A DNA stretch of 8,044 nt from a virus (taxonomy: Duplodnaviria; Heunggongvirae; Uroviricota; Caudoviricetes): the IMG/VR virus record IMGVR_UViG_2639762982_000010, one strand, 5' to 3'. This document shows positions 4,722-4,811 of this stretch, piece by piece; position 1 is the stretch's first letter, and each line of letters begins with the position of its first letter. The notes under the pieces were generated by a model. It was not told where the DNA came from and did not search any database. It worked only from the letters and a program-made list of their open reading frames with translations. The translations under genes were made by a program, and so were the position numbers.

Positions 4722-4811
4722 ATGAATAACCCCGTCTGTCTTGATGACTGGTTGATTGGCTTTAAAAGCTTATGCTGTACTTTGGCCGTAATAGCTCTGC
4801 TAATAATATAA
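4722..4811 (+). CDS. Candidate small hydrophobic peptide (29 aa) with strong RBS; hypothetical
   Basis: GGAGAG at 4711-4716, 5-nt spacer, ATG at 4722. Translation [29 protein letters not shown], stop TAA at 4809-4811. C-terminal half is a possible single transmembrane helix. Too short for the supplied ORF track. Confidence 0.3.

Follow-up and report, generated by a model that had tools for sequence, protein, structure and literature searches.

The open reading frame at positions 4722 to 4811 of the plus strand is ynfS, an already known, named and experimentally confirmed small-protein gene of Escherichia coli, whose function is uncharacterized. The window analyzed here is the whole stretch of 8,044 nucleotides in which this frame lies. 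In the explanation that we favor, and that we regard as moderately probable, this known gene of the Qin prophage encodes a membrane-anchored micro-protein that is made together with CspF from a portable cassette and that is not a toxin.

Identity of the reading frame

The window represents Qin, a cryptic prophage of E. coli. The 29-residue translation of 4722..4811 is 100% identical to that of ynfS in strain MG1655 (b4750, YP_009518791.1), which occupies positions 1642122..1642211 of NC_000913.3 between cspF and ydfT/quuQ, on the same strand as in the window. Other RefSeq genomes carry the gene as hypothetical protein WP_120795389.1. An earlier note, made from the sequence alone, had described the frame as unannotated-looking, which these entries correct. 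Its guess that the frame might be one of the small proteins of the Qin region was right, as the identity with b4750, epitope tagging and ribosome profiling establish. YnfS has a Pfam family of its own (PF23697, 'YnfS'), which it matches over model positions 1-29 of 29 with 80.9 bits, the cut-off being 27. Searches of NCBIfam, PADLOC and PDB gave no match, and the only match in PHROGs was insignificant (E 0.12).

Production of the protein has been reported repeatedly. YnfS is listed in Table 1 of the small proteins that VanOrsdel et al. 2018 detected by SPA-tagging and immunoblot; the tag was chromosomal and at the gene's own locus, flanked by cspF and ydfT, and YnfS had earlier been an unidentified positive of a tetracycline ribosome-profiling screen (PMC6001520). 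Weaver et al. 2019 found strong peaks at the YnfS start with both retapamulin and Onc112, the type of initiation data that the earlier note had proposed as a check. In the same work tagged YnfS was seen in stationary phase, and the protein level was below what the initiation peaks suggest (bioRxiv 10.1101/511675). The transcript is visible on tiling arrays (PMC10100675), and a 2024 survey placed ynfS among the uncharacterized E. coli genes (PMC11551758). No report on a function, membrane localization, partner or phenotype of YnfS was found in the searchable literature that mentions ynfS.

The reading of the start region in the earlier note was exact to the nucleotide. The Shine-Dalgarno sequence GGAGAG (4711-4716) is followed by a TTTTT spacer (4717-4721) and the ATG (4722-4724), which thus stands 5 nt past GGAGAG, and the 29 codons end with a TAA at 4809-4811, to which a second TAA is joined without a gap (4812-4814). 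The distance from the cspF stop to the ynfS start is 54 nt. As 32 open reading frames of at least 25 amino acids overlap the interval 3800-5600, a length of 29 codons alone is within chance. The arrangement GGAGAG-N3-8-ATG is less common than such frames, with two copies in the 8 kb window where 0.27 would be expected; the second copy belongs to the ATG of a 103-amino-acid frame at 2654..2965 on the minus strand, which corresponds to the annotated ydfR. The 29-codon ynfS frame is a real gene, for which comparison and experiment provide the strongest evidence.

Two further frames in this region were rejected as genes. The overlapping plus-strand frame at 4772..4897 (41 amino acids) comprises only 15 amino acids in Citrobacter, and the antisense frame at 4762..4881 on the minus strand (39 amino acids) contains 2-3 stops there. 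A further frame of 21 codons bridges the two genes at 4664..4729 on the plus strand; its ATG (1642064 in MG1655) shares nucleotides with the stop of cspF (ATGA), and its TAA is located 3 nt past the ynfS ATG. It joins the cspF stop to the ynfS start, so that a relay of ribosomes from cspF to ynfS could occur. In Citrobacter this frame has 2-7 codons, between E. coli clades it shows three residue differences, and its protein has no match in Pfam.

Selection on the peptide

Homologues were sought by scanning one genome per species for relatives of CspF and inspecting the frames downstream, and additionally by exact cluster look-up and degenerate DNA patterns. In three Citrobacter genomes 29-codon homologues with 52-59% identity were located directly downstream of cspF-like genes: MNQTVYLSDWLTGLKSLCSTIAMTILLFI in Citrobacter sp. 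FP75, MYQKIYLNDWLTGLKSSCCTLIVTLLVFI in C. braakii and MYPKIYLNDWLTGLKSSCCTLIATILLFI in C. pasteurii. The Citrobacter homologues reach 32.3 and 37.2 bits against PF23697. Eleven residues are invariant (M1, L7, D9, W10, L11, G13, K15, S16, C18, T20 and L26). Ahead of the ATG, GGAGAGTTT is kept in E. coli and the three Citrobacter types, while the remaining spacer sequence diverges.

Between E. coli and Citrobacter the dN/dS values of ynfS range from 0.15 to 0.32, with synonymous sites near saturation, and the deficit of nonsynonymous changes is reflected in binomial P values of 0.0002-0.02. Frame +1 is the only frame that is open in all five ynfS sequences. A degenerate pattern spanning ten codons gave 42 independent matches in viral and metagenome contigs, all of which lie in intact 29-codon frames with a ribosome-binding site. 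As read from these codon comparisons, the amino-acid sequence and the exact length of YnfS are under purifying selection across Escherichia and Citrobacter. The search for a conserved frame in related prophages that the earlier note had suggested thus recovered a length of 29 codons in both genera, and the indels or stops that it had named as counter-evidence are absent from all of the pattern matches and, as described below, from nearly all E. coli-type copies.

Among 35 E. coli haplotypes, 13 of the 90 sites of ynfS vary and no indel occurs; the 3' stretch, by comparison, varies at 44 of its 148 sites and contains three indels. The variable positions within ynfS comprise four third, six first and three second codon positions and hence show no enrichment of third positions; this polymorphism within E. 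coli is too sparse for a selection test. The fixed differences between the major E. coli clades are A22T and I29M. Both are nonsynonymous, and recent constraint is therefore not demonstrable. No paralogue of ynfS was found downstream of cspH in E. coli and Shigella, nor was a ynfS-like frame found behind the cspH-like genes of other Escherichia species, Salmonella, Klebsiella and Enterobacter.

A portable cassette in unrelated prophages

The upstream neighbor of ynfS is cspF (4455..4667, plus strand, from the annotation), whose product matches the CSD domain with 77.8 bits. Divergent from it lies cspB (3939..4154, minus strand), at a constant offset in all loci, and the fourth gene, ynfU (3405..3575, plus strand), encodes a small zinc-binding protein. 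In all loci with enough upstream sequence, cspF starts 267-278 nt ahead of the ynfS start on the same strand, and ynfU is positioned 1.27-1.37 kb upstream of ynfS in both E. coli and Citrobacter loci. The cassette spans positions 3405..4811 of the window, 4097..5550 of locus L252, 891..2368 of L214 and 1..900 of L242. Its GC content is 0.35-0.44, compared with 0.45-0.54 in the flanks formed by the lysis genes and the Q/ydfU side. The genes ynfU, cspB, cspF and ynfS form a fixed low-GC block, in which ynfS is always located directly behind cspF.

Three prophage backbones carry this block. In E. coli lambdoid prophages the cassette is positioned between a holin gene and the gene for a Q-like antiterminator of 250 amino acids; in the window the latter is quuQ/ydfT (5089..5841, minus strand; phrog_127, 352 bits), which is convergent with ynfS. 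Citrobacter lambdoid prophages harbor another holin and an unrelated Q, which has 137 amino acids (phrog_79). In the C. braakii type the cassette is found beside the genes for the tail sheath and other components of a contractile tail, and neither Q query matched within 6 kb of ynfS. As the cassette is common to unrelated prophage backbones, it behaves as a portable moron; and as it occurs with two families of Q, or without a Q match, the geometry of Q and late promoter belongs to the backbone and not to the unit. The earlier note had seen in this geometry, a candidate late promoter on the opposite strand, a possible means of antisense control. The occurrence of cspF-ynfS with both Q families and in a contractile-tail prophage makes this arrangement incidental.

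Like other morons in the Q-to-lysis interval of lambdoid phages, the cassette is low in GC, self-contained, located between Q and holin and equipped with its own promoter-like and terminator-like signals. It differs from them in its cargo of three tiny proteins and a cold-shock protein, and in its additional location beside a contractile-tail cluster. Small genes adjoining csp genes are also found elsewhere, namely ynfQ, ynfR, ynfN and gnsB beside cspI in the window, and the genes adjacent to cspG. These show no sequence similarity to ynfS, which moreover follows the non-canonical cspF and not a cold-inducible csp gene. YnfR increases on cold shock (PMC6001520), and no report of cold induction of YnfS was found in the literature searched. 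The leaders of cspB (3923..4315, minus strand) and cspI (1027..1412, minus strand) match the Rfam cspA thermoregulator above the gathering score, with 158.8 and 112.8 bits, respectively; for the cspF leader no match to this family was reported by Rfam.

A modest match (E 9e-6) was obtained between CspF and CSD_V, a cold-shock-domain model in the defense-system library PADLOC, which probably reflects similarity at the level of the domain only. In some carriers about 1.7 kb of additional AT-rich DNA (GC 0.29-0.40) is present between the ynfS terminator and Q, as in phage HannyBb (L008, 3100..5060) and in L007, L244, L245, L258 and L267. This DNA contains no tRNA, no credible Rfam match and small frames only, among them one of 94 amino acids (3617..3901) that matches nothing in Pfam and whose C-terminal tail is hydrophobic.

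Distribution and decay in E. coli

The ynfS region was present at a coverage of at least 80% in 1406 of 5426 complete E. coli genomes, and the cassette was also found in the isolated temperate phages 2H10, HannyBb, PhiR42_1 and PhiR63_1. Of 200 E. coli-type copies of ynfS, taken from viral contigs and from genomes, 197 are intact; the start codon is missing from two of the others and a nonsense codon interrupts the third; decay of cspF among the same copies is similar. The 90% identity cluster of YnfS comprises 52 members, and the variants listed are all 29 residues long and differ by single substitutions.

The end of cspF, the whole of ynfS and most of the 3' stretch are lost through a natural deletion of about 258 bp, the ends of which meet at an ATGAG repeat. 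The deletion is exemplified by E. coli ECCHD184 (L003, 2285..2600, compared with about 4660..4917 of the window), in which cspF is also frameshifted. In addition to the 1406 genomes with the ynfS region, about 216 complete E. coli genomes show a match limited to the last 45 nt of the query and harbor this deletion of ynfS, which indicates that the gene is dispensable. In the hits H24-H27 (e.g. NZ_CP166722.1) two separate pieces make up the match to 4400-5100, and the annotation at this place shows an IS1A-family transposase, which points to an IS1 insertion in this region in a few E. coli genomes. Elsewhere in the prophage, rzpQ is annotated as frameshifted in the near-identical Qin copy of E. 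coli AR_0077 (L001, 1730..2228) and intact in MG1655.

Transcription of cspF and ynfS

The layout of the region suggests that ynfS would be the second cistron of a bicistronic cspF-ynfS mRNA. In a consensus scan neither a terminator-like site nor a plus-strand promoter-like site was detected between the two genes. The 54-nt spacer (4668..4721, plus strand) varies between E. coli clades and contains an indel relative to Citrobacter, with the exception of the area around the ribosome-binding site. Two Citrobacter loci show a promoter-like sequence, CTGGCA-17-TATAGT, about 30 nt ahead of cspF. The mRNA probably starts from this conserved promoter-like element and would end at a hairpin at 4960..4983, about 150 nt past ynfS. 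The intervening 3' untranslated stretch (4812..4959, plus strand) is poorly conserved and not alignable with Citrobacter. With regard to RNA level, cspF RNA has been found to rise in long-term stationary phase, during which a cspF knockout had no phenotype, whereas cspB and cspI are of importance in that phase (PMC7406224).

The hairpin consists of an A-tract, a GC stem and a T-tract and is terminator-like on the plus strand. It appears in folds of both strands and shows only singleton variants among the 35 haplotypes. As the two sides of the stem carry an A-tract and a T-tract, respectively, the hairpin could terminate transcription in both directions; it is probably a bidirectional terminator, which would serve cspF-ynfS on the plus strand and a short promoter-proximal transcript on the minus strand. 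The earlier note had correctly placed the frame between cspF, which ends at 4667, and this probable terminator. On the minus strand, 45 nt before the hairpin, the consensus scan gave a promoter-like site (5029..5058, 9/12), a candidate late promoter downstream of Q. Judging from this arrangement, minus-strand transcripts probably stop short of ynfS when no active Q is present. The hairpin and the minus-strand site resemble a short late-promoter-plus-terminator unit that is shared with the end of cspF-ynfS.

In Rfam no family matched the interval 4400-5000, and the solid matches were limited to the cspA-type leaders of cspB and cspI. A weak match to the Hfq-binding RNA isrK (25.1 bits, E 0.033; the gathering score is 50) was located at 7629..7710 of the window on the minus strand, between rem and hokD.

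Peptide properties and a membrane model

The division into a polar N-terminus and a hydrophobic stretch described in the earlier note is supported by hydropathy, hydrophobic moment and helix prediction, which give a polar to amphipathic N-terminal half and a hydrophobic C-terminal stretch. In the best 19-residue window (residues 11-29) the mean Kyte-Doolittle value is 2.46 for E. coli and 1.8-1.9 for Citrobacter. Hessa-type sums over the same residues are about -1.0 kcal/mol for E. coli and +1.5 to +1.7 kcal/mol for Citrobacter, the latter being borderline for insertion. The uncharged run of YnfS comprises 14 residues (16-29), including Ser, Cys and Thr. In all four types the maximum of the hydrophobic moment falls on residues 6-17 (windows starting at 6-7; 0.40-0.47). 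Single-sequence AlphaFold2, run on YnfS with one extra N-terminal residue, gave one helix over residues 4-28 of YnfS with a pLDDT of 86.5, which is weak evidence. A lipoprotein was also considered and rejected on inspection, as the sequence ahead of the cysteines lacks a signal peptide and does not suit a lipobox at Cys18/Cys19.

The peptide is most likely membrane-anchored, with a predicted single helix. Residues of about 6-17 would form an amphipathic, interface-seeking half, with L7, W10, L11 and F/L14 set against D9, K15 and S16, and residues 16-29 an uncharged hydrophobic tail at the end of the protein, so that the whole product may be one continuous helix. Tail-anchored proteins are inserted into the membrane after their release from the ribosome. 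As the hydrophobic segment of YnfS forms the end of the protein, its insertion would likewise follow release. The insertion of YnfS into the inner membrane is most likely post-translational and led by the tail, and Lys15 and the N-terminus would be on the cytoplasmic side. There it most likely binds a larger membrane protein, as other membrane micro-proteins of E. coli do, and the invariant residues Cys18 and Thr20 would be part of the contact face. Such a protein would serve the lysogen rather than the lytic program of the phage.

YnfS shares its size class and its predicted single helix with AcrZ, MgtS, MgrB and CydX, and its hydrophobic window is within the range of MgtS, YldA and YahV. Like members of the AcrZ/MgtS/MgrB/CydX class it is made from its own ribosome-binding site and is detectable when tagged. 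However, it has no sequence relationship to these proteins, its hydrophobic segment is shorter and placed at the extreme C-terminus, and it is phage-borne, whereas they are encoded by core genes.

Possible roles tied to CspF or to translation itself

The short uncharged run of 14 residues and the borderline Citrobacter forms leave room for a peripheral or soluble peptide. Accordingly, YnfS could be a soluble or peripheral helical peptide that works directly with CspF, an atypical cold-shock-domain protein, for example by tethering or modulating it. The strict linkage to cspF at a fixed distance in every carrier agrees with such a role, as does the lack of a ynfS-like frame behind cspH or the cspH-like genes of Salmonella, Klebsiella and Enterobacter. 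The short clean hydrophobic core, the Citrobacter forms that are borderline for insertion and the amphipathic N-terminal half also agree with such a peptide. However, the last 9-10 residues consist almost purely of Leu, Ile, Val, Ala and Phe in all types, with which solubility is hard to achieve for a 29-mer, and the 19-residue window of the E. coli form is clearly in the transmembrane range. We regard a soluble or peripheral partner of CspF as unlikely.

A more novel reading would treat CspF and YnfS as a two-part phage-carried functional unit, in which a degenerate cold-shock-domain protein is combined with a tail-anchored peptide and YnfS is a membrane effector that benefits the lysogen. 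We consider this very unlikely. If true, the benefit might be, for example, the exclusion of other phages or an adaptation of the membrane to cold or starvation. Less likely than this effector version is that YnfS represents a new kind of toxin restrained by CspF or by an unmapped RNA.

It is also conceivable that only the act of translation matters, for example by shielding the 3' region of cspF from Rho or decay, or that the frame is translational noise kept passively in a young mobile cassette. The variable sites without third-position enrichment and the nonsynonymous nature of both clade-fixed changes in E. coli are in line with this, as are the level of YnfS protein below that suggested by the initiation peaks (bioRxiv 10.1101/511675) and the 21-codon frame that bridges cspF and ynfS in E. 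coli. Across genera, however, the dN/dS of 0.15-0.32 and 11 invariant residues despite saturated synonymous sites argue for selection on the product, three sequence types agree in a length of exactly 29 codons, and the bridging frame is not conserved in Citrobacter. The chance that the peptide itself is irrelevant is thus slight.

Comparison with type I toxins

Type I toxins are marked by a toxic hydrophobic peptide, an antisense or adjacent small RNA and a leader that holds translation off. The earlier note had pointed to a resemblance of the frame to such toxins. In this reading ynfS would be a type I toxin gene, or a gene silenced by antisense transcription from the late promoter, and its product would damage the membrane when the antisense RNA is lacking. 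YnfS does resemble peptides of the Ibs/ShoB type in size and in its hydrophobic C-terminus, and hokD is situated 3 kb away in the same prophage. Moreover, a weak minus-strand promoter-like site is present at the 3' end of ynfS (4832..4805) and another inside ynfS of the Citrobacter locus L252. Q and its promoter-like site are convergent with ynfS, so that late transcripts modified by Q would be antisense to it.

The remaining evidence speaks against this reading. A Pfam search at E values up to 10 matched only the YnfS family and none of Hok, Ldr, TisB, Ibs or Fst, and PADLOC and NCBIfam gave no match. The minus-strand promoter-like sites (9/12) do not coincide in position between E. coli and L252 and are absent from the Citrobacter loci L212 and L214, and the -35 element of the E. 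coli site varies between clades. No minus-strand terminator-like site was found within or upstream of ynfS, nor any Rfam match in 4400-5000, although consensus scans can miss RNAs. None of the folds differed significantly from shuffled sequences, with z scores of -1.1 for the ynfS leader, -0.8 for the 3' stretch and -1.8 for the antisense strand. For the leader (z -1.14) 26 of 200 shuffles fold as well, and the ribosome-binding site is not firmly sequestered. YnfS is made in unstressed LB cultures and has strong initiation peaks (PMC6001520; bioRxiv 10.1101/511675), and the literature mentioning ynfS contains no report of growth arrest or membrane damage on its expression. A contractile-tail prophage in which no Q match lies within 6 kb of ynfS carries the cassette as well, and in the window the hairpin separates the candidate late promoter from ynfS, so that antisense read-through would need active Q. 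Beyond size and composition, the likeness noted earlier found no support: only the gene's own Pfam family is matched, conserved antisense signals did not appear in the consensus scans, the leader is not significantly structured and translation is open. With Hok, Ldr, TisB, Ibs, ShoB, ZorO and DinQ the peptide shares that it is short, hydrophobic and prophage-encoded, but it lacks a match to their families and a significantly structured leader, and the consensus scans revealed no conserved antisense RNA gene. A type I toxin or an antisense-silenced gene is therefore highly improbable.

Significance

The recovery of ynfS here is of little discovery value. The name, the tagging and the ribosome profiling of the gene date from 2018-2019, and Pfam lists a family for its product. 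The present analysis adds the Citrobacter orthologues, the cross-genus selection on the peptide, the unbroken linkage to cspF and the portable ynfU-cspB-cspF-ynfS cassette. These results favor a CspF-linked role of YnfS on the side of the lysogen over models based on a toxin or on late transcription.
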